Assembly: GCA_947625965.1 (NCBI GenBank)
Contig: CANQQO010000001.1
Coordinates: 60,596-124,595 of the forward strand
From: an uncultured Oscillospiraceae bacterium
GTDB taxonomy: Bacteria; Bacillota; Clostridia; Oscillospirales; Oscillospiraceae
Reading direction: 5' to 3'
Length of the DNA: 64,000 nt
Part shown: positions 15,426 to 49,822 of the stretch, one piece after another
How the letters are laid out: the number at the start of each line of letters is the position of its first letter
How positions within the stretch are numbered: position 1 is the stretch's first letter
Position numbers and translations under genes: made by a program
Notes under the pieces: model-generated
The model's database searches: none
Seen by the model: only the letters and a program-made list of their open reading frames with translations
What the model was told of the DNA's origin: nothing

Positions 15426-15454
15426 TTGCATTTTGGGGGCGAATGTGTTAAAAT
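15426..15454 (+). promoter_or_regulatory. sigma-A type promoter for mnmA
   Basis: TTGCAT (15426-15431), 17-nt spacer, TGtTAAAAT (hexamer 15449-15454). Confidence 0.6.
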
Positions 15455-15483
15455 AAAGCCATATTCAAAAAGGGGGGGAGCCC

Positions 15484-16569
15484 ATGGAGAAAAAGAAGGC
15501 GCTCATTGCCATGAGCGGCGGCGTGGACAGCTCCGTGGCCGCCTATCTGACCCGGGAGGCCGGATACGACTGCCTGGGGGCCACCATGCGGCTCTACGCC
15601 AACGAGGACGCGGGAATACCCCGGGAGGGGACCTGCTGCACCCTGGAGGACGCGGAGGACGCCCGGGCCGTGGCCTACCGGCTGGGGATGCCCTTTTATG
15701 TGTTCAATTATCAGGAGGAGTTCCGGGAACGGGTCATGGAACCCTTCGTCCGGGACTACGAGGCGGGCCGGACCCCCAATCCCTGCATCGAGTGCAACCG
15801 CTGCCTGAAATTCGGGTCCCTGCTCCACCGGGCGGAGGTGCTGGGCTGCGACATCCTGGTCACCGGCCACTATGCCCGGGTCCGGCGGGAGGGGGAGCGG
15901 TGCCTGCTGTATAAGGCCGCCGACGGGAGCAAGGATCAGAGCTACGTCCTCTATATGCTGACCCAGGACCAACTGAAGCGCATCCGCTTTCCCCTGGGGG
16001 ACCTGACCAAGGACCAGACCCGCGCCATCGCCCTGGAGCAGGGCTTCGTCAACGCCCGGAAGCGGGACAGCCAGGACATCTGCTTCGTCCCCGACGGGGA
16101 CTATGTGGCCTTCCTGGAGCGCAGCACCGGCAAGCGGTATCCTTCCGGGGCCTTTTTGGACCTGGCGGGGGCTCCTGTGGGCCGCCACCGGGGAGCCGTG
16201 GCCTATACCCTGGGCCAGCGGAAGGGGCTGGGCCTGGCCATGGGGACCCCTGTGTACGTCTGCGCCAAGGACATGGAGAAAAACACGGTCACCGTGGGCC
16301 CGGAGGCGGCCCTTTTCCACCGGACCCTGGTGGCGGGGGACTGCAATTGGTTCCCCTTTGACGCCCTTCCGGGCCCCATCCGGGTCCAGGCCAAGGCCCG
16401 CTACCGGCAAAAGGAGGAGCCCGCCACCGTCTACCCCCTGGCCCAGGGCAGGATCCGGGTGGAATTTGACCGCCCCCAGCGGGCCATGACCCCGGGTCAG
16501 GCCGTGGTCCTCTACGACGGGGACCTGGTCGTCGGTGGCGGGACGATCTTGGAGGTCGAGCCGGACTGA
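15484..16569 (+). CDS. mnmA: tRNA 2-thiouridine(34) synthase
   Basis: [19 protein letters not shown]-loop, NPCIECN, SKDQSY motifs. Confidence 0.95.
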
Positions 16570-16648
16570 GGGCTTCCTGAAAACGCGCCTAGCGTGATCA
16601 TGGCGAGCGAAAGATAAAAATGGCTGAAAATCGGCATTTTCAGCGGAA

Positions 16649-16682
16649 ACGGCGTGGCTTAGGCCACGCCGTACTATTTTTT
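16649..16682 (+). terminator. intrinsic terminator after mnmA
   Basis: ACGGCGTGGCttagGCCACGCCGT followed by actaTTTTTT. The T-tract overlaps the last codons of convergent aroQ. Confidence 0.7.
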
Positions 16683-17108
16683 GAGATATTCCTTCAAAAA
16701 CCGAATGGCTTGGCAATAGCCCGCCAGTCCCTGGCCTTTGATGGTCTTGACGCAGGCCATGCCAGCGTAGGAGATCTGCCGGAAGGGCTCCCGGGCGTCC
16801 ACATCGGAGATGTGGACCTCCACCGCCGGGAGGGAGACCGCTTTCAGCGCGTCCAGGATCGCCACGGAGGTGTGGGTGTAGGCCCCGGGATTGATGACGA
16901 TGCCGTCAAATTTCCCGTAGGCGGCCTGGATGGCGTCCACCAGGGCCCCTTCGTGGTTGGACTGATACTGGGTGACCTCTACCCCCTCCTCCTTGGCCGT
17001 CTGTTCCAGCAGGGCCAGCAGGTCCGCGAAGCTGTTTTTTCCATAGATATTCGGCTCCCGGATCCCCAGCATATTGAGATTGGGACCGTTCAAAACCAGA
17101 ATTTTCAC
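16674..17108 (-). CDS. aroQ: type II 3-dehydroquinate dehydratase
   Basis: MKILVLNGPNLNMLGIREPNIYG...QSNHEG...INPGAYTHTS. Confidence 0.95.
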   Translation of the reverse strand: MKILVLNGPNLNMLGIREPNIYGKNSFADLLALLEQTAKEEGVEVTQYQSNHEGALVDAIQAAYGKFDGIVINPGAYTHTSVAILDALKAVSLPAVEVHISDVDAREPFRQISYAGMACVKTIKGQGLAGYCQAIRFLKEYLKK

Positions 17109-18331
17109 GATTCTCCCTCCACGATCCGCAGAATTTGAGCGACGGCGTCCGAAACGGCGCCGTTGTTGTCGATGGCGTAGTCCGCGAAGGACCGATACAG
17201 GGGCCGCCGTTTCCGCTCCATGTCCGCCAGGTCCCCGGCAAGGGACAGGGGCCGTCCCTCCTTTGGTAGCTTATCCGCGTCCCGCTGGATCCAGAAGACC
17301 CGGCCGTTCTGCCGCAGAAGGGGGAAATTTTCGGGCCGGGTGACGCAGCCGCCGCCGGTGGCGATGATCCTGCCCCGCTCCTTGCAAAGCCTTTCCAGCG
17401 CCCTTGTCTCCCGGGCGCGGAAGCCGGACTCTCCCTCCCGCGCGAAGATGGCGGGAATGGGCATCCCGGCCATGGCCTCCACCTCCGCGTCGGCGTCCAC
17501 CGCTTCCAGGCCCGTCCGCGCCGCCAGCTCTGAGGCCAGGGTGGATTTGCCGGCCCCAGGCATCCCGATGAGGATGATGTTCTCCATCTGACGCCGCAGC
17601 CGTCCATGGATGGGGCCGATGACGCTGTCGGGCAGCTCTTTTCCCAGGAACCACTGGGCGCTCTCCTTGGCCTGGGCCACCAGCATCCAGAGGCCGTTCC
17701 TGGCGACGATCCCCCGCCTTTCCGCCGCCTGCAGGAGCCGGGTCCGGGCGGGGTTATAGATCAGGTCCAGGACTCCCTCCAGTCTGGGAAAACCGTCCAG
17801 GGAGAGGGGAGCGGCGTCCGTGTTGGGATACATCCCCACCGGCGTGGCGTTGACGATGACGGCGGCGTCGGCGTGGCGGTCCAGATTCCCATAGTTGTCC
17901 GGCCCGGACCGGGAAATGACGGCGACCTCCCCGCCCAGATCCTTCAGCACCGCCTGGGCCGTCGCGGAGGCGCCGCCGCTGCCCAGGACCAGGCATTTTT
18001 TGCCGGTCACGTCAAGGCCGCTGAGCCGGACCATGGAGGTGAAGCCGAAAAAGTCCGTGTTGTGGCCCAGAAGCCCCCCGTCCGGCAGGCGGACTAGGGT
18101 GTTCACGGCGCCCAGCCGCTTCGCGGTGGGCGTGAGCCGGGCGCAGTAGGGGAGGACCGCCTTTTTATAGGGAATGGTGACGTTGAGGCCGGAGAGATCT
18201 TCCCTTTGGAGGAAGGCCCCCAGGTCCTCCGGGGGCACCTCGAAGAGGTCGTAGGAATAGTCCCCCAAAAAATGATGGATCTGGGGCGAATAGCTGTGCC
18301 CCAGCTTGGCCCCCAACAGTCCGCAGCGCAT
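17105..18331 (-). CDS. aroE: fused shikimate dehydrogenase / shikimate kinase
   Basis: N-terminal LGHSYSPQIH...NVTIPYK...GSGGA (AroE). C-terminal IILIGMPGAGKST..., GGG (AroK). The ATG at 18331 overlaps the pheA stop (TGATG). Confidence 0.9.
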   Translation of the reverse strand: MRCGLLGAKLGHSYSPQIHHFLGDYSYDLFEVPPEDLGAFLQREDLSGLNVTIPYKKAVLPYCARLTPTAKRLGAVNTLVRLPDGGLLGHNTDFFGFTSMVRLSGLDVTGKKCLVLGSGGASATAQAVLKDLGGEVAVISRSGPDNYGNLDRHADAAVIVNATPVGMYPNTDAAPLSLDGFPRLEGVLDLIYNPARTRLLQAAERRGIVARNGLWMLVAQAKESAQWFLGKELPDSVIGPIHGRLRRQMENIILIGMPGAGKSTLASELAARTGLEAVDADAEVEAMAGMPIPAIFAREGESGFRARETRALERLCKERGRIIATGGGCVTRPENFPLLRQNGRVFWIQRDADKLPKEGRPLSLAGDLADMERKRRPLYRSFADYAIDNNGAVSDAVAQILRIVEGES

Positions 18332-19473
18332 CAGACTACCTCGCTGTAGCTGCCCAGGTACTTGAATTCCTCGCACATATCCTCCAGCTCGCACATGAGC
18401 TGGACAAACTCCTCGGAGTAGATGGAGGTCTCCAGGTCGAAGTAGAACATAAATTCAAACTCCCGTTCCGGGATGGGCCGGGATTCCAGCTTGGTCACGT
18501 TGATGCCCAGGGCAAAGAGACGGGCCAGGACTGTGTACAGCGCGCCGGGCCGGTGGGGGAGGATCATCATCAGGCTGGTCTTGTCCGCGCCGGGATAGAT
18601 CTCCAGGTTCTTGCTGATGCAGATGAACCGGGTCCGGTTATTCCCCTCGTCCTGGACGGAGGCGGCCAGGCACTGTAGGCCGTAGAGTTCTCCGCAGCTC
18701 CGGCTGGACAGGGCGGCCACGTCCTTCCGGCCCGACTGGGCCACCATTTGGGCGGCCACGGCGGTGTTCTCCACGGGGATGGCCTTGGCGTCAGGCAGGG
18801 TCTTGAGAAATTCTGAGCACTGGCCGATGGCCTGCTCATGGGAGTAGATCTCCCGGATGTCCTCCGGCTTGGTCCCGGGATTCACCAGCAGATTGTGGTC
18901 CACCTTCAGCCGGAAGGTCCGGACGATGAAGAAATTGTGGCGGATCATCAGGTCGTAGACCTTCTTCACGCTGCCGGCGGTGGAATTTTCAATGGGCAGG
19001 ACGCCGTACTGGCAGAGCCCCTGCTCGATGGCGTTGAAGACCCCCTCAAAATTCTTGAAATAGAGGATGAAGGGATTCTTGAAGATCTTCTCGCAGGCGA
19101 TCTGGGAGTAGGCCCCCTCAACCCCCTGGCAGGCCGCCATGGGGGCCTGGGGGAAGAGCTGAGGCGTGGAGGCGATGGACTCCGTGATCCTCCGGTAGAG
19201 ATCCGTGCCGTCGGCGCTGCGCCGGGACTGGTAGCTCCGGCTCAGGCCGATGAGCATGGAGAAGAGGACCCGGGAATAGTTTGCCATCTCGGGGCCGGCC
19301 TTTTTGGCCACGTCCGCCAGCTTCTCCCGCTCCCGCAGAGGCGCCACGATGGGCAGACCCCGCTCCTTCTTGCAGTCCGCGATCATGGCGGAGATTTCCA
19401 TCCGCTCCAGGAAGCACCGAAGCAGCTCGTCGTCCACCTGGTCGATGCGCTGGCGCAGTTCGCTCAGTTCCAT
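18331..19473 (-). CDS. pheA: bifunctional chorismate mutase / prephenate dehydratase
   Basis: N-terminal CM helix (LRQRIDQVDDELLRCFLERM), PDT domain (ENSTAGSV) and C-terminal ACT-like region. Confidence 0.9.
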   Translation of the reverse strand: MELSELRQRIDQVDDELLRCFLERMEISAMIADCKKERGLPIVAPLREREKLADVAKKAGPEMANYSRVLFSMLIGLSRSYQSRRSADGTDLYRRITESIASTPQLFPQAPMAACQGVEGAYSQIACEKIFKNPFILYFKNFEGVFNAIEQGLCQYGVLPIENSTAGSVKKVYDLMIRHNFFIVRTFRLKVDHNLLVNPGTKPEDIREIYSHEQAIGQCSEFLKTLPDAKAIPVENTAVAAQMVAQSGRKDVAALSSRSCGELYGLQCLAASVQDEGNNRTRFICISKNLEIYPGADKTSLMMILPHRPGALYTVLARLFALGINVTKLESRPIPEREFEFMFYFDLETSIYSEEFVQLMCELEDMCEEFKYLGSYSEVV

Positions 19474-23601: not shown

Positions 23602-24599
23602 GCCAGGGCCCTCCGGATGGCGGTGACCTGGGCGCTGAGTTTGGCGAACTGGGCCGGGGTGATGGACTGGGCCCCATCGCAGAGGGCGCGGGAGGGATTG
23701 TTGTGGACCTCCACCATGATGCCGTCCGCGCCGGCGGCGGCCGCGGCAGCCGCCATGGAGGGCACCAGACGGGCCTTTCCGGTGGCGTGGCTGGGGTCAA
23801 CTACCACAGGCAGATGGGTCAGCTCGTGGAGCACCGGCACGGCGGACAGATCCAGGGTGTTCCGGGTGTAGGTCTCAAAGGTACGGATGCCCCGCTCGCA
23901 GAGGATCACGTTCTCGTTGCCCTCGCTCATGATATATTCCGCGCTCATCAGCAGCTCCTGGAGGGTGTTCGCCAGGCCCCGCTTGAGCAGGATGGGCTTG
24001 TGGGTCTTGCCCAGCTCCTTGAGCAGATCGAAATTCTGCATATTCCGGGCGCCCACCTGGATGATGTCCACCTCGTCGAACAGGTCCAGGGCGGTGATGG
24101 TCATGATCTCCGTGACGATGGGCAGGCCGGTGGCCTTCTTGGCCTCCAGAAGCAGACGGATGCCCTCGTCCTTCAGACCCTGGAAGGCGTAGGGAGAGGT
24201 CCGGGGCTTGAAAGCGCCGCCCCGGAGGACCTTCGCCCCCGCTTCCTTCACGGCGGCGGCCACCTCGATGATCTGCTCCTCGGATTCCACGGAGCAGGGT
24301 CCGGCGATCATGGCGAATTCCCCGCCGCCAAAGACGGCGTCTCCCACCCGGATCACCGTGTCCTCGGGGTGGAATTTCCGGTTGGCCTGCTTGAAGGGCT
24401 CGGAGACCCGCTTCACCGAGTCCACGATCTCCAGGCTGCTCAGCAGCTCCATATCCACCCGGCTGGTGTCTCCGATCAGACCCAGGATGGTGACCTCCTG
24501 GCCCTGGGACACATGGACGTCCAGATCCATCCGCTTGAGCCAGTTCACCAGATGATCCGTCTGGGCGGGGGTGACGCCGTGCTTGAGAATTGCGATCAT
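23598..24599 (-). CDS. aroF: 3-deoxy-7-phosphoheptulonate (DAHP) synthase, type I-beta with N-terminal regulatory domain
   Basis: MIAILKHG... ferredoxin-like N-domain, then GPCSVES, KPRTSPY, DPSH motifs. GAGGTG RBS before the ATG at 24599. Confidence 0.9.
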   Translation of the reverse strand: MIAILKHGVTPAQTDHLVNWLKRMDLDVHVSQGQEVTILGLIGDTSRVDMELLSSLEIVDSVKRVSEPFKQANRKFHPEDTVIRVGDAVFGGGEFAMIAGPCSVESEEQIIEVAAAVKEAGAKVLRGGAFKPRTSPYAFQGLKDEGIRLLLEAKKATGLPIVTEIMTITALDLFDEVDIIQVGARNMQNFDLLKELGKTHKPILLKRGLANTLQELLMSAEYIMSEGNENVILCERGIRTFETYTRNTLDLSAVPVLHELTHLPVVVDPSHATGKARLVPSMAAAAAAAGADGIMVEVHNNPSRALCDGAQSITPAQFAKLSAQVTAIRRALA

Positions 24600-24613
24600 T
24601 TTTTTACACCTCA

Positions 24614-24654
24614 CAAAAAATCGCGCCGCACATTCCGTGAGTGAAGTGCGGCGC
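24614..24654 (-). terminator. intrinsic terminator (attenuator) in the aro operon leader
   Basis: Minus strand: CGCGCCGCAC...GTGCGGCGCG followed by ATTTTTTG. It ends 15 nt upstream of the aroF ATG. Confidence 0.75.
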
Positions 24655-24704
24655 GTTCCAAATCCTTGACCCGTTATTCAGAATTCCTTGCAGCACAAAA
24701 CTCC

Positions 24705-24770
24705 ATTACTTTTTCCCATTAAAAAAGTAATAGCCGTAAAAATAGAAGCCGCCGAAGAAATTCGTGACCA
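24705..24770 (-). CDS. candidate Phe/Tyr-rich leader peptide (21 aa) of the aromatic operon
   Basis: AGGAGG (24782-24777) sits 6 nt before the ATG. Translation MVTNFFGGFYFYGYYFFNGKK* has 6 Phe and 4 Tyr. It lies between the promoter and the terminator. Confidence 0.55.
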
Positions 24771-24798
24771 TATTGGGCCTCCTGTTTCAGATTATCCT

Positions 24799-24827
24799 GA
24801 CTATACCACATTTCGATCCGTTTTGCA
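24799..24827 (-). promoter_or_regulatory. sigma-A type promoter of the aro operon
   Basis: Minus strand: TTGCAA (24827-24822), 17-nt spacer, TGgTATAGT (hexamer 24804-24799). Confidence 0.65.
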
Positions 24828-24912
24828 AGCAGAAAATTTCCTTAACCTACCCAAAATTCGGGACCATATCCATGCTATATTATAGAAAACCCCAGATCAG
24901 GAGGAAATCGTC

Positions 24913-27060
24913 ATGGATCCCATTTTGAATACGCTGAATCCGGCCCAGATGGAGGCCGCCCAGGAGACGGAGGGCTATCTCCGGGTGGTGGCGGGGGCCG
25001 GCTCGGGAAAGACCCGGACGCTGACGGCCCGGTATCTGTACCTGGTGGAGGCGCTGGACATCTCCACCGCCAACATTCTCTGCCTGACCTTCACCAACAA
25101 GGCGGCGGCGGAGATGAAAAAGCGGATCCGGGCCCGCCTGCCGGACCGGGACCTGGGACGGATCACCACCTTCCACGGCTTCTGCGTGGGCCTGCTGAAG
25201 GAGGACTGCCACGTGGTGGAATACCCCAGCACCTTCCTGGTGCTGGACGAGGAGGACAAGGAGGCCATGCTCCGCCGGGTCTTCGAGGACCTGGGCGTCA
25301 CGGGCCGGGACCTGACCATCAAGGACGCGGTGGACTACATCGGCTGGCGGAAGGGAGGCCGCGGCTACGTCAAGACCCTCATCGACCCGGACCTGGACCG
25401 GCTCCTGGCCCACGAGAAGGAGGCCACTACCCTCAAGGACAAGGTCCTCTACCGCTATTTCTACGAGCAGCGGAAGTGCTACGGCCTGGATTTTGACGAT
25501 CTGATCTACTTCACCCTCTACATTCTGCAAACGGACAAAACCACCCGGGAGAAGTGGCAGCGGCGGCTGGAATACGTGATGGTGGACGAGTTCCAGGACA
25601 TCGACAAGGACCAGTACGCCCTGGCGGACATCCTGTCGGGCTATCACAAGAATCTTTTTGTCGTGGGGGACCCGGACCAGACCATCTATACCTGGCGGGG
25701 GGCCGACGTGAAATTCCTCCTGGAATTTGACAGCCGCCATCCGGGGACGAAGACCATCTACCTCAACGCCAACTACCGCTCTATCCCCCCGGTCCTCACC
25801 GCCGCCAACGCTCTGATCTCCCACAACCGGGACCGGCTGGAAAAGGAGCTGACCCCCATTCGGACCGGGGAGCGGAAGCCCCTGTATTTCCACGCCAGGA
25901 CCAGCCAACTGGAGGCGGACTGGCTCACGGCCCAGATGCGGGCCATGCACGACGGGGGGATGCCCTACTCCCAGATGGGGGTGCTGTACCGGGCCCACTA
26001 CGTATCCCGGGCGGTGGAGGAGTCCCTGATCCGGAACCGGATCCCCTATGTGCTCTATTCCGGCGTGGAGTTTTACAAGCGGAAGGAGATCAAGGATGTG
26101 TTATGTTACCTTCGGATGCTCTACTCCGGGGACGACGTCAGCTTTCTGCGCACCGTCAACGAGCCCCGGCGGGGGGTGGGCCGCAGCCGGATCGCGGCGC
26201 TGAAGCAGTACGCCCAGTGGAACAAGTGCAGCCTCTTTGAGGCCCTTTTGGCCAATTTGGAGACGGACCTGTTCCGCCGGAGCCGGGCCAGGGAGTATGC
26301 CCGGCTGATCGAGAAGTACCGGTCCATCTACGACCAGATGGACCTGACGGATCTGCTCTCCGGCATCCTGAGCGAGAGCGGCTACGAAGCGGCCCTCCGT
26401 TCCTCCGGGGAGGAGGAGCGGCTGGACAACCTGGCGGAGCTGAAGCAGGCCATTTACGATTTCCAGCGAAAGGCGGGGGAGGAGGTCACCCTGGGCAACT
26501 ACCTGGACCACGCCGCCCTCTTCACCAATATGGACCAGACGGAGCGCAGCGAGGCGGTGAAGCTGATGACGGTCCACGCCGCCAAGGGACTGGAATTTCC
26601 GGTGGTGTTCCTCTGCGGCCTGTCCGAGGGGATCTTTCCCGGGAAACGGGCCAACACCCGGGAAAAGCTGGAGGAGGAGCGGCGGCTGTGCTACGTGGCC
26701 ATGACCCGGGCCAGGGACCGGCTGTACCTCTCCGACGCCGCCGGCAGCAATTACGACGGCTCCAACCGCCTGCCCAGCCGGTTTTTGTTCAACGCGGGGG
26801 AGGGGAACGTGGAGTATGTGGTCCCCCTGGACCCGGAGCTGGTGGACCGAGTCCAGAGCCAGATCCAAAAGACGGAAAACCTGGAGCCCCGCACCCCCCG
26901 GGAGGACCCGGAGATCGGCAGGACCGTCCGGCACCCGGTCTTTGGGGAGGGAAAGATCATCGGCATCCCCCGGGACCAGAGCGGCTATATCATTCAATTC
27001 GAAAAGGTCCCCACCCCCAGGACCCTGGCCAAGAGCGCGAAGCTGGAATTTGTGCAGTAA
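24913..27060 (+). CDS. pcrA: ATP-dependent DNA helicase, UvrD/PcrA family
   Basis: AGAGSGKTRT Walker A, VDEFQD, TVHAAKGLEF, YVAMTRAR helicase motifs. AGGAGG RBS. Confidence 0.9.
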   Translation: MDPILNTLNPAQMEAAQETEGYLRVVAGAGSGKTRTLTARYLYLVEALDISTANILCLTFTNKAAAEMKKRIRARLPDRDLGRITTFHGFCVGLLKEDCHVVEYPSTFLVLDEEDKEAMLRRVFEDLGVTGRDLTIKDAVDYIGWRKGGRGYVKTLIDPDLDRLLAHEKEATTLKDKVLYRYFYEQRKCYGLDFDDLIYFTLYILQTDKTTREKWQRRLEYVMVDEFQDIDKDQYALADILSGYHKNLFVVGDPDQTIYTWRGADVKFLLEFDSRHPGTKTIYLNANYRSIPPVLTAANALISHNRDRLEKELTPIRTGERKPLYFHARTSQLEADWLTAQMRAMHDGGMPYSQMGVLYRAHYVSRAVEESLIRNRIPYVLYSGVEFYKRKEIKDVLCYLRMLYSGDDVSFLRTVNEPRRGVGRSRIAALKQYAQWNKCSLFEALLANLETDLFRRSRAREYARLIEKYRSIYDQMDLTDLLSGILSESGYEAALRSSGEEERLDNLAELKQAIYDFQRKAGEEVTLGNYLDHAALFTNMDQTERSEAVKLMTVHAAKGLEFPVVFLCGLSEGIFPGKRANTREKLEEERRLCYVAMTRARDRLYLSDAAGSNYDGSNRLPSRFLFNAGEGNVEYVVPLDPELVDRVQSQIQKTENLEPRTPREDPEIGRTVRHPVFGEGKIIGIPRDQSGYIIQFEKVPTPRTLAKSAKLEFVQ

Positions 27061-41701: not shown

Positions 41702-41830
41702 TTACCGGCTGTTCCGGCTCTGGCTGCTCTGGTTCTGGCTGTTCTGGTTCTGATTCTGGCTGTTCTGATTCTGGTTCTGGTTCTGGTTGCTGTTCTTGTT
41801 CTGGTTCTGATTCTGATTCTGGTTATTCAT
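41702..41830 (-). CDS. Asn/Gln-repeat small protein (42 aa) downstream of spoVAE
   Basis: GGAGGA sits 9 nt before the ATG. MNNQNQNQNQNKNSNQNQNQNQNSQNQNQNSQNQSSQSRNSR*. Same strand as the spoVA genes, 63 nt after spoVAE. Confidence 0.5.
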   Translation of the reverse strand: MNNQNQNQNQNKNSNQNQNQNQNSQNQNQNSQNQSSQSRNSR

Positions 41831-46087: not shown

Positions 46088-48472
46088 TCAGCGGAGGACC
46101 GCTCCCAGCTCCTTCCCCAGGGCGGCCAGGACGCTGGACATGACCTGCTCGGAGTCGGTGTCGGTGAGGGTCCGGTCGTCTGCCCGGAGCTCCAGGGTGA
46201 AGGCCATGCTCTTCTTGCCCATGGGGACGCCGGGGCCCCGGTAGATGTCGAACAGCCCGACGCTCCGCAGCAGCTTCCCGGCGGAGGCGGTGATGACGTC
46301 CTCCGCCTGGGCCACGGTCACGGCCTCGTCGCAGACCAGCGCCAGGTCCCGGCTGACGGTGGGATACTTGGGCAGCGGCGTATAGGTGGCCTCGGGGAGC
46401 TGAAGGGCCAGCAGGGCGGAGAAGTCGATCTCCGCGCAGTAGACCTCGGCGTCGATGCCGTAGTTCTTGGCGGCCAGGGGATGGAGCTGGCCCAGAACGC
46501 CCACATCCTGGCCGAGGATGCTGACCTTGGCGCAGCGGCCGGGGTGGTAGCTGGGATGGTCCGAAAGGGCCTCATAACGGGCCTTGGGCAGCCGGAGCCC
46601 GTTCAAAATGGTTTCCAGCTCGCCCTTGAGGGTGAAGAAGGTCTCCCCGGCGCCGTAGGTCCCCAGGACCAGATGCTTCGGCTCGTCGGGCAGGGGCTGG
46701 CCCTCCCTGGGCAGGTAGACCTTGGCCAGCTCATAGAGCTTGACGGACTTATTGTGATAGGCGTTGTTCCGGGACAGGATGTCCAGCATAGAGGGCAGGG
46801 CCACGGTCCGCATGATGGAGGTGTCCTCGCCCAGAGGATTCTGGATCTTCATGGCCCGGCGCAGGGGGGAATCCTGGGGCAGGCGGATCTGGTCGAAAAT
46901 GCCGGGGGAGACGAAGGAATAGGTGATGATCTCGCTGTAGCCCATGGCCCGGCACAGATTCCCGGCGGTGTTCTCAAAGAGCATCATGGGGCTGTAGCCC
47001 CCCTGGGTGGCGGTGGAGAAGGCGGTAACGGGGATCTCGTTGTAGCCGTAGGACCGGCCCACCTCCTCGGCAATGTCGGCGGTGAGGACCAGGTCCGGCC
47101 GCCAGGAGGGTACCTGGATCCTGCCGTCCACCACGGGGATCTCCAGCCGGTTCAGATAGAGCTCCATGTCCTCCCGGGGAATGTCGGTGCCCAGCAGGGC
47201 GTTGATCCGGTCCGGCTCCAGGGGGATGGTCCGGGGTTCGGGGATGTTGCCAAGAATGTCAATGACGCCGTCCAGCACGTCGCCGCAGTCCAGCAGCTCC
47301 ACCAGCTCGCAGGCCCGCTGAATGGCGGGTAGGGCCATCATGGGGTCCAGGTGCTTTTCAAACTTGCCGGAGGACTCGGTCCGCATCCCCAGGACCAGAG
47401 CGGTCTGCCGGATGGAGGTGCCGTCAAAGTTGGCGGACTCAAAGACCACGGTGGTGGTGTCGTCCAAGATCTCGGAGTTTTCGCCGCCCATGATGCCGGC
47501 CAGGCCGATGGGCTTGTCCTGGTCCGCAATGACCAGCATCCCGGGGCTGAGCTTCCGCAGATTGCCGTCCAGGGTGGTCAAAGTCTCCCCCTCCACGCTC
47601 TCCCGGACGATGATCTTGCCGGAGGAGACATAGCGGTAGTCGAAGGCGTGCATGGGCTGGCCGTACTCCAGCATCACGTAGTTCGTGATGTCCACAATGT
47701 TGTTGATGGGCCGGATGCCGTTGGCGCGGAGCCGCTGCCGCAGCCACTTGGGAGAGGGGCCGATCCTCACGTTGGCTACCATCCGGGCGGTGTAGCGGTT
47801 GCACAGGTTGGAGGCGGGGACCTCCACGTCCAGATGGTCGAAGATGCTGCCAGCGCCGCTGCCCTTCACCTGGGGCTCGTGATGGCGCATGGGCTTGTGG
47901 AAGGCCGCGGCGGCCTCCCGGGCCAGGCCGATAATGGAGTAGCAGTCCGGCCGGTTGTTGGTGATCTCAAATTCCACCACGGTGTCGTCTGCGCCAATGA
48001 CGGTGTTGATGTCCTGCCCCACCTGGCAGTCCTCCTGGAGGCTCCAGATGCCATCCTCAATGGCGTAGGGGAAGTCATTTATGGTCAGACCCAGCTCCTT
48101 TAGGGAGCAGAGCATCCCGTTGGAGACCTCCCCCCGGAGCTTGCCCTTGGTGATGTGGATGCCGCCGGGGAGGCGGGAGTTGTGGAGCGCCACGGGGACC
48201 AGGTCATTTTCCTTCACGTTTTGGGCGCCGGTGACGATCTGAATGGGTTCTCCCTTACCCACGTCCACCTGGCAGACCCACATATGGTCGGAGTTGGTGT
48301 GCCGGGCCAGGGAAAGGACCCTGCCCACCACCACGTTCTGGATCTCGGCGTCCAATCGTTCGTAGGTCTCCACCTTCTGGCCGAAGATGGTCATGGTCTC
48401 GCAGAAATCCTTGTCGGAAACCTGGGACAGGTCCACAAATTCCTCGTTGATCCATTTTCTGTTGAGCTTCAT
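46088..48472 (-). CDS. pheT: phenylalanine--tRNA ligase beta subunit
   Basis: 794 aa with tRNA-binding, B3/4, B5 and FDX-ACB regions (e.g. GIMGGENSE). Confidence 0.95.
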   Translation of the reverse strand: MKLNRKWINEEFVDLSQVSDKDFCETMTIFGQKVETYERLDAEIQNVVVGRVLSLARHTNSDHMWVCQVDVGKGEPIQIVTGAQNVKENDLVPVALHNSRLPGGIHITKGKLRGEVSNGMLCSLKELGLTINDFPYAIEDGIWSLQEDCQVGQDINTVIGADDTVVEFEITNNRPDCYSIIGLAREAAAAFHKPMRHHEPQVKGSGAGSIFDHLDVEVPASNLCNRYTARMVANVRIGPSPKWLRQRLRANGIRPINNIVDITNYVMLEYGQPMHAFDYRYVSSGKIIVRESVEGETLTTLDGNLRKLSPGMLVIADQDKPIGLAGIMGGENSEILDDTTTVVFESANFDGTSIRQTALVLGMRTESSGKFEKHLDPMMALPAIQRACELVELLDCGDVLDGVIDILGNIPEPRTIPLEPDRINALLGTDIPREDMELYLNRLEIPVVDGRIQVPSWRPDLVLTADIAEEVGRSYGYNEIPVTAFSTATQGGYSPMMLFENTAGNLCRAMGYSEIITYSFVSPGIFDQIRLPQDSPLRRAMKIQNPLGEDTSIMRTVALPSMLDILSRNNAYHNKSVKLYELAKVYLPREGQPLPDEPKHLVLGTYGAGETFFTLKGELETILNGLRLPKARYEALSDHPSYHPGRCAKVSILGQDVGVLGQLHPLAAKNYGIDAEVYCAEIDFSALLALQLPEATYTPLPKYPTVSRDLALVCDEAVTVAQAEDVITASAGKLLRSVGLFDIYRGPGVPMGKKSMAFTLELRADDRTLTDTDSEQVMSSVLAALGKELGAVLR

Positions 48473-49561: not shown

Positions 49562-49822
49562 ATAAAAAATACACCTTCGCCCCCATCGGGACGAAGGATC
49601 TCCTCCGCGGTACCACCCGCATTCGCCTTACGGCGCGCTTTCCCGGCGCTGATACGCCATCCGATCGATAACGGGATCACCCGGCGGGCCCTACTTTCCG
49701 TTTCAGGCCGCGGCTCCTGGGAGAAGGCCCGGCGCTCCCCGGAAAACGGCTCCCACCACCCCGTTCTCGCTGGTTCCGCGTTCACAAGCGCCGGACAGCC
49801 CATTCCTTGCCTGTCCATATCG
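49562..49822 (-). promoter_or_regulatory. T-box riboswitch leader of pheST (terminator included)
   Basis: Minus strand: GGGTGGTACCGCGG T-box sequence (49618-49605). It overlaps an antiterminator/terminator. Terminator CCTTCGTCCCgatgGGGGCGAAGG plus TGTATTTTTT. UUC triplets occur in the stem I region. Confidence 0.85.

Follow-up and report, generated by a model that had tools for sequence, protein, structure and literature searches.

The DNA stretch analysed here (the window) comprises 64,000 nucleotides of contig CANQQO010000001.1 from an uncultured Oscillospiraceae bacterium (GenBank assembly GCA_947625965.1, positions 60,596 to 124,595 of the forward strand). It carries an operon for aromatic amino acid biosynthesis, preceded by a leader that contains a small open reading frame (ORF) rich in Phe and Tyr codons and a terminator-like hairpin. 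Pfam scans identify the genes of the operon, in order, as aroF, tyrA, aroB, aroA, aroC, pheA, an aroE/aroK fusion and aroQ, in agreement with the eight-gene shikimate/Phe/Tyr operon reported in a preliminary description of this DNA. The first gene encodes a DAHP synthase with an FXD regulatory domain, and pheA encodes chorismate mutase together with prephenate dehydratase (CM+PDT). The content of the operon thus covers the whole shikimate pathway and the Phe and Tyr branches, and includes no trp genes. The ORFs overlap or abut, which suggests that the eight genes are transcribed as a single unit. The aroE/aroK fusion is a 429-aa ORF with matches to Shikimate_dh_N (shikimate dehydrogenase N-terminal domain) and SKI (shikimate kinase). 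Immediately 3' of aroQ is a 422-aa ORF with a TTG start and no Pfam match, overlapped by a 361-aa ORF on the opposite strand.

The leader lies on the minus strand, between a promoter-like site and aroF (24614-24828; Table 1). The site has nine of 12 consensus matches plus the TG extension, and is the only promoter-like site found by a consensus scan across 24300-25200; it is predicted to function as the promoter, in which case transcription would start about 10-15 nt before the ribosome-binding site (RBS) of the leader ORF. Of the 21 residues encoded by this ORF, ten are aromatic (five Phe, five Tyr) and none is Trp. The Tyr-Tyr-Phe-Phe codons near the end of the ORF pair with the Lys-Lys-stop codons to form a hairpin, H2, whose core (ATTACTTTTT / AAAAAGTAAT) is lengthened to 12-13 bp in the minimum free energy (MFE) fold. 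Further downstream, a 10-bp GC stem followed by six T residues has a predicted energy of -23.1 kcal/mol. A simple terminator scan of 24300-25200 made no call for this hairpin because of its 14-nt loop; it is revealed by folding, and the fold of the whole leader has a z-score of -3.8 relative to shuffled sequences. The aroF ATG is at 24599, 15 nt past the last T of the tract, and a GTG at 24614 given in the ORF list is probably not the true start. The 5' neighbour is a UvrD-like helicase gene, and since it is divergent the terminator hairpin is not that of this gene. The extended -10 promoter, the AGGAGG-preceded small ORF with ten aromatic residues, the hairpin involving its last sense codons and stop, and the GC hairpin with its U-tract before aroF had all been proposed in the preliminary description, and each is present.

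Table 1. Coordinates, within the window, of the leader elements, the operon and other features mentioned in the text
Feature	Position	Strand	Description
Promoter	24828-24800	minus	Predicted; -35 TTGCAA (24828-24823), 17-nt spacer, TG-extended -10 TATAGT TGGTATAGT (24808-24800)
Shine-Dalgarno sequence of leader ORF	24783-24778	minus	AGGAGG; spacing to ATG 6 nt
Leader ORF	24771-24706	minus	MVTNFFGGFYFYGYYFFNGKK; 21 codons plus UAA
Segment 1	24763-24748	minus	GAAUUUCUUCGGCGGC; leader codons 4-8; segment 2 is its partner when the leader is not translated (anti-antiterminator)
Hairpin H2	24734-24703	minus	Tyr-Tyr-Phe-Phe codons GCUAUUACUUUUU (24734-24722) paired with Lys-Lys-stop codons AAAAAGUAAUGG (24714-24703)
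Segment 2	24704-24681	minus	GGAGUUUUGUGCUGCAAGGAAUUC; 3' part: partner of segment 1; 5' part (24704-24690): partner of terminator 5' arm and loop (antiterminator)
Small spacer hairpin within antiterminator	24687-24660	minus	Seen in fold of masked leader; region variable and unconserved among relatives
Segment 3	24655-24632	minus	Terminator 5' arm (24655-24646) plus loop (24645-24632)
Segment 4	24631-24614	minus	Terminator 3' arm GUGCGGCGCG (24631-24622) plus U6 tract (24620-24615)
Terminator stem	24655-24646 and 24631-24622	minus	CGCGCCGCAC paired with GTGCGGCGCG
aroF RBS	24612-24607	minus	GAGGUG; outside terminator hairpin
aro operon	24612-16674	minus	aroF, tyrA, aroB, aroA, aroC, pheA, aroE/aroK fusion, aroQ
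aroF	24599-23598	minus	DAHP synthase
aroE/aroK	17105-18394	minus	429-aa ORF
ORF 3' of aroQ	15448-16716	minus	422-aa ORF
UvrD-like helicase gene	24913-27060	plus	5' neighbour of the leader
T-box (RF00230)	49584-49816	minus	Directly upstream of pheS
pheS	48486-~49565		Downstream of T-box
pheT	46088-48472		Downstream of T-box
Asn/Gln-repeat ORF	41702-41830	minus	42 codons

Folding of the leader reveals two competing arrangements. Segments 1 and 3 are alike, as are segments 2 and 4, as a switch between 1:2, 2:3 and 3:4 pairings requires. The MFE fold of the window leader contains the 1:2 pairing (14 bp, with a 2-nt bulge) around H2, together with the terminator. The alternative is an antiterminator, in which the terminator 5' arm and the terminator loop are paired to segment 2 and the extension on its 5' side, with a conserved single U-C mismatch. 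In the window this duplex is GGAGU-UUU-GUGC-U-GC with GC-C-GCAC-UUC-ACUC (-14.0 kcal/mol), the parts of segment 3 involved being GCCGCAC and the loop sequence ACUC (24642-24639). With the ORF masked and segment 4 left out, the antiterminator becomes the MFE fold (-15.7 kcal/mol), and placing a ribosome at the stop codon reduces it to -7.5 kcal/mol.

Conservation was assessed in 80 loci encoding AroF relatives, one genome per species, which span Faecousia, other Oscillospiraceae, Acutalibacteraceae, Lachnospiraceae, Christensenellaceae, Ruminococcus and others. In 55 of 79 loci, the window included, the 300 nt upstream of aroF contain a small ORF that has six or more Phe or Tyr in eight residues, compared with none in 79 reverse-complement controls and none in 395 shuffled sequences. 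Across both strands of the 64-kb window, the leader is the only small ORF preceded by a Shine-Dalgarno sequence that has even five such residues in eight. At this lower threshold, the ORF is accompanied by a terminator-like hairpin before aroF in 61 of 78 loci. The 61 leader peptides are 14-38 aa long and consist of 18.3% Phe and 17.6% Tyr (36% together), with 0.4% Trp. Peptide length, the remaining sequence and synonymous codons vary amongst the relatives, while the small ORF and its aromatic run are kept; outside H2, the Phe and Tyr codons vary synonymously, both synonymous codons occurring, and Phe and Tyr also replace each other. Conservation of the ORF and its run in relatives had been set beforehand as a test of the preliminary description, which had also looked to a foldable structure competing with the terminator. 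Both were found, the latter as the MFE fold of the masked leader lacking the terminator 3' arm.

Alignment A1, which comprises the 24 leaders nearest to that of the window and was assembled without use of any sequence pattern, retains GGAGG and ATG in 24 of 24 sequences. Gaps in the ORF region are mostly multiples of three; the exceptions are L017, which reads the conserved motif in the other frame, and L018, which has an earlier stop. Besides the ORF signals, four RNA elements are conserved in A1, namely segment 1, H2, segment 2 and the terminator arms (GCCGCAC and GUGCGGC). Segment 1 in most near relatives is UUGCNGCACA, with F-A-A-Q codons. H2 is a near-invariant 11-bp helix, and 96% of its cells are paired across 115 sequences, but its arms were part of the pattern used in the search for these. 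Segment 2 (GAUUUGUGCUGCAA) follows directly after the stop codon, and its GUGCUGC is near-invariant among the relatives.

Two architectures of the ORF end are found. One places the stop codon within the 3' arm of H2 (..KK-UAA-UAG); the other has an offset frame that continues through segment 2 as ..S-N-S-D-L-C-C-K. The relatives listed for this comparison are L017, L026, L028, L039 and L049-L051. The window leader is of the stop-in-H2 type, with UAA followed by UGG. Both architectures are compatible with an attenuator, and as judged from the sequences the conserved part is the RNA motif and not the tail of the peptide. The +1 frame of the window leader reads ..KSNGVLCCKEF before a stop, which is the tail of the second architecture, and the U-run (U UUU UUA) has a slippery appearance.

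Seven loci (L024, L032, L033, L048, L056, L074 and L078) encode an AroF 61-70% identical to that of the window, in metagenome-assembled genomes (MAGs) labelled Bacteroidaceae, Alloprevotella, Lentisphaerae or Kiritimatiellae. F/Y-rich upstream ORFs and terminators are present in L056, L074 and L078, and L032 is matched by the Clostridia covariance model R1 described below. These contigs could reflect mis-binning or horizontal transfer.

The alternative helices also covary. Because a larger MAFFT alignment (A2) was out of register at the short terminator loops, tests based on duplex energy and on anchors were used; the energy of the duplex between segment 2 and segment 3 plus loop of the same leader was compared with that obtained with swapped partners, using permutations. 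In the 24 near relatives, the antiterminator has an energy of -17.1 kcal/mol with its own partner and -14.6 kcal/mol with swapped partners (0/2000 permutations as good). The corresponding values are -14.8 and -11.5 kcal/mol for 60 aroF loci (0/5000), -13.6 and -10.4 kcal/mol for the 38 distant loci alone (0/5000), and -17.0 and -13.8 kcal/mol for 116 leaders selected by the sequence pattern described below (0/3000). The variable triplet before UUUGUG tracks the terminator loop, with the combinations CGA with UCG/UUG, UCA/UGA, UAA/UUA, CGC/GCG, AAG/CUU and UGA/UCA, and the same helix is built from other sequences in divergent lineages, for example UGGUUUGGCUG with CAGCCAAACC in Oscillibacter. 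Within A1, 86.9% of antiterminator cells are paired, compared with 24-60% when the partners are slid. For the 1:2 pairing, the own and swapped values in the 24 relatives are -14.3 and -12.4 kcal/mol (1/5000 permutations). The terminator stem shows compensatory double changes at 10 of 10 pairs, with 92% of cells paired in 115 sequences; none of these measures was reached in 500 shuffles.

The spacing of these elements relative to the ORF is also constrained. In 53 of 55 loci, segment 2 starts within the ORF or at most 9 nt after the first stop-codon base, and its start lies at a median of 19 nt past the last Phe or Tyr codon in the 55 loci. A ribosome protects approximately 12-15 nt downstream of its A site. 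With this footprint, a ribosome stalled at the Phe and Tyr codons leaves segment 2 free, and one at the stop codon covers its 5' half. This is the classical geometry for stalled and terminating ribosomes, and it supports the ribosome-mediated attenuation put forward in the preliminary description. The leader is therefore best read as a transcription attenuator of the classical, ribosome-mediated type, with charged tRNA-Phe and tRNA-Tyr as the signals sensed, a reading to which a probability of roughly 85% is attached.

In such an attenuator, the leader RNA would adopt two mutually exclusive folds, OFF and ON, and the choice between them would be made by the ribosome translating the leader. In the OFF fold, segment 1 would pair with segment 2, enclosing H2, the 3:4 terminator would form and the transcript would end at U6, 15 nt short of aroF. 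In the ON fold, the terminator 5' arm and loop would instead be paired to segment 2 and the extension on its 5' side, no terminator would form, and polymerase would enter aroF-tyrA-aroB-aroA-aroC-pheA-aroE/K-aroQ. Under a shortage of Phe-tRNA or Tyr-tRNA, the ribosome would stall at one of the ten Phe or Tyr codons and hold segment 1 and H2 open; segment 2, some 19 nt downstream of the last Phe codon, would remain free to form the antiterminator. When both tRNAs are plentiful, the ribosome would reach the UAA at 24708-24706, its footprint would lie over the 5' half of segment 2, and the terminator would form. The arrangement of the elements thus predicts that the ORF is translated, that transcription terminates at the U-tract and that read-through rises when Phe or Tyr is limiting. 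H2 may act as a pause, nucleation or synchronising hairpin, so that polymerase and ribosome advance together; an elemental pause consensus (G-10, Y-1, G+1) was looked for by eye after H2 and was not found there.

The distribution of the motif was examined by scanning a DNA pattern for H2 and segment 2 across genomes, which matched at least 120 species genomes. Amongst the matches listed, all are Clostridia, including the cultured [Clostridium] viride DSM 6836. In these, the gene immediately downstream encodes AroF in 89 cases, a PF04392 ABC substrate-binding lipoprotein in 25 and TyrA (prephenate dehydrogenase) in four, while two matches are at a contig end; in all 118 readable cases the motif is therefore upstream of aroF, tyrA or a gene for an ABC-transporter binding protein. 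Examples of the transporter type include L083, L088, L091-L093, L100, L114, L116, L119, L136 and L139, and in one MAG the motif is present before aroF as well as before a transporter gene (L094, L139). Phe and Tyr codons are balanced in the leaders of aroF and of the transporter genes, which have about four of each. The four tyrA leaders, from Acutalibacteraceae (L096, L159, L162 and L184), read ..YYYYYYF.. with six Tyr and two Phe each. The sample is small and its members are related, but the bias points in the direction expected of a codon-sensing device. The association also suggests that the PF04392 ABC-transporter binding protein is likely to be a component of an aromatic amino acid importer. 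A covariance model (R1) built from 115 leaders has a single match in the window, at 24616-24734 on the minus strand (75.9 bits, E 2e-11), and its matches lie directly upstream of aroF in 47 of the 80 loci selected by AroF.

Translation of the leader might instead act by shielding the transcript from Rho, by affecting mRNA stability or by translational coupling to aroF, the hairpin being a stabiliser or a leaky stop. Termination at the hairpin is itself a prediction, and Firmicute RNA polymerase may outrun ribosomes (PMC13323073). These points would fit such a route, but the stem is followed by U6 and has compensatory changes at every pair, the alternative helix specifically overlaps the terminator 5' arm, and the aroF RBS is outside the hairpin and hence not sequestered. 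Control by any of these means is considered quite unlikely.

A switch formed by H2, segment 2 and the terminator could also be read by a protein, a tRNA or a small ligand, and the F/Y-coding frame would then be a by-product of a U/A-rich conserved RNA. This would account for the conservation of the H2 arms and segment 2 at the nucleotide level, synonymous sites included, and for retention of the motif in either frame (KK-stop-stop or ..SNSDLCCK). It would not account for conservation of the Shine-Dalgarno sequence, the ATG and an open frame through the aromatic run, for the predominance of gaps in multiples of three, or for the variation of codons outside H2, both synonymous and between Phe and Tyr, with the amino acid class kept. 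Moreover, the stop codon stands in a fixed relation to segment 2, leader composition tracks the downstream gene, as in the Tyr-rich tyrA leaders, and the leader has no match to a T-box or riboswitch model. A switch that does not involve the ribosome is thus judged very unlikely.

The strong RBS, and the existence of small aromatic peptides elsewhere, might suggest a functional small peptide, aromatic or hydrophobic, as the product of the ORF, with the hairpin as the ordinary terminator of a small gene. Only the composition of the peptide is conserved, though, with its length ranging over 14-38 aa and its sequence variable; amongst the matches listed the ORF is always in the 5' leader of aromatic amino acid genes, and its stop position is tied to the RNA switch, which together make a functional peptide highly improbable. 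A chance ORF beside a chance hairpin, for which only the small size of the ORF could be cited, is refuted by the conservation of the leader, and is also opposed by the controls (0/79 and 0/395), the single such ORF in the window and the E-value of the covariance model match (2e-11).

Several observations weigh against a ribosome-mediated attenuator at this locus. The antiterminator of the window consists of 4+4+2 bp with a 3x3 internal loop and the U-C mismatch, and is weaker than those of most relatives; at -14 to -15.7 kcal/mol, against -23.1 kcal/mol for the terminator, it would have to win kinetically. Segment 1 of the window departs from the clade consensus, with NFFGG instead of FAAQ codons, although its pairing is retained. 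Formal covariation of the antiterminator in A1 is modest, with four pairs showing double changes and 26 of 500 shuffles reaching the score, because the near clade is too conserved for a strong test. The RNA sequencing runs that contain this stretch, two pig-gut metatranscriptomes, cover only conserved pieces of the aroF coding sequence, at 90-95% identity and from other organisms, and leave the leader uncovered; the sequence sets that contain the leader itself are all DNA metagenomes, mostly from rabbit gut. For Corynebacterium glutamicum aroR, limitation of Phe was effective and that of Tyr was not (PMC11802643), so that dual sensing of Phe and Tyr is not guaranteed here. Finally, the phylum Bacillota as a whole has been assigned RNA polymerases of the 'runaway' type, which move faster than ribosomes (PMC13323073, citing Johnson 2020); if this applies here, ribosome-mediated attenuation would need a pause.

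A conserved leader-peptide attenuator requires at least local coupling of transcription and translation. The window has a GC content of 63%, and the mean sense-strand purine content over 12 genes is 50.7%, with no purine bias of the kind reported for 'runaway-transcription' Bacillota. This is a small sample, and gives a weak hint that the genome may not behave like Bacillus.

Leader-peptide attenuators such as trpL, pheL and hisL are of a textbook kind. The enterobacterial pheL-pheA and pheM-pheST systems (Rfam Phe_leader; PMC3082878), as well as trpL and hisL, have the mechanism proposed here: the leader contains the regulatory codons, four segments form 1:2, 2:3 and 3:4 pairings, and the position of the stop codon lets the terminating ribosome mask segment 2. 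The window leader differs from them in having no Rfam match, in the proposed sensing of two amino acids and in its host, a Clostridium. It differs also in that the antiterminator reaches into the terminator loop and in that regulatory codons and the stop codon lie within a conserved hairpin.

The closest functional precedent is aroR of C. glutamicum, a Phe-Tyr-Phe leader upstream of aroF, for which limitation of Phe raised transcription (PMC11802643, citing Neshat 2014). Common to both are Phe and Tyr codons before a DAHP synthase operon and a rise in transcription on ribosome stalling, proposed in the case of the window. By description, aroR differs in belonging to the Actinobacteria, in having three aromatic codons, compared with ten in the window leader, and in that Tyr supply is ineffective; the window operon, in turn, comprises the whole shikimate pathway with pheA and tyrA. 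Among bioinformatic precedents, uORFC-13-1 (Brewer et al. 2021, PMC8632094) comes closest, a purely bioinformatic proposal with 24 representatives from Acholeplasma and unassigned environmental sequences. It has a promoter, an RBS, a start codon, a Phe-coding U-run, an intrinsic terminator and one further conserved paired element. Compared by description only, it shares with the window leader its position upstream of aroF and a Phe-coding U-run directly before a terminator; none of the pattern matches listed (at least 120) is labelled Acholeplasma.

His leaders have been reported before hisZ and hisS paralogues in the Bacillus cereus group and Clostridium difficile (PMC2965389, PMC4833913), and a Leu/phe leader (RF01743) in Lactococcus lactis (PMC2864571). 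These likewise combine an ORF of amino-acid-specific codons with a terminator, and occur in Gram-positive bacteria that rely on T-boxes elsewhere, but they differ from the window leader in amino acids, genes and RNA sequences; RF01743 has no match to the window leader, and the His leaders are set apart by description. Leader peptides are thus rare but reported in Firmicutes, and the preliminary description overstated how unusual such a solution is for this group in view of these examples, uORFC-13-1 (PMC8632094) and also C. glutamicum aroR (PMC11802643). A literature search found no description of an aroF Phe/Tyr leader in Oscillospiraceae or other Clostridia. The kind of attenuator is known and has published precedents; what is new is a widespread, uncatalogued family with no Rfam match.

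The leader, at 21 codons, is invisible to gene callers and to Rfam, and its recognition adds a regulatory layer to the annotation of many uncultured Oscillospiraceae of the gut, and of organisms related to them, in which it precedes the complete shikimate/Phe/Tyr operon. The motif also yields functional predictions, namely that the PF04392 ABC transporter is a likely aromatic amino acid importer, and a prediction for tyrA. The gain is one of breadth and annotation, the mechanism being a textbook one with no new principle. More tentatively, and at less than even odds, the matches may represent a large uncatalogued Phe/Tyr-sensing regulon of gut Clostridia (aroF operons, tyrA and the PF04392 binding protein, in at least 120 species), in which the lead ribosome keeps pace with polymerase over the leader and H2 serves as the pausing or synchronising device. 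If this is true, conservation of the regulon would go against the phylum-level 'runaway' assignment for these Bacillota. A conserved ribosome-dependent attenuator in Bacillota would also provide a test case for transcription-translation coupling outside the Bacilli.

A second Phe-related control element is present in the window. A T-box lies directly upstream of pheS (67.7 bits, E 1.6e-12), with pheS and pheT downstream. It is missing from the default-threshold scan, because its score is below the Rfam 15 gathering score of 93. The search that found it gave no T-box match in the aroF leader, in agreement with the preliminary description, which had placed a T-box before pheST and none before aroF. 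In the region 24300-25100, Rfam matches at E-values up to 10 were noise only, with no leader family (RF01743 included), and over the whole window nothing besides the pheS T-box was found at the gathering threshold or at E-values up to 0.05. TRAP-like or T-box control of the aro operon was considered and rejected, the operon having no trp genes and no T-box match. With a T-box before pheST and the leader before the aro operon, the genome appears to employ a T-box for the former and a leader peptide for the latter. Elsewhere in the window, a 42-codon ORF preceded by a Shine-Dalgarno sequence consists almost entirely of Asn/Gln repeats (MNNQNQNQNQNKNSNQNQ...).

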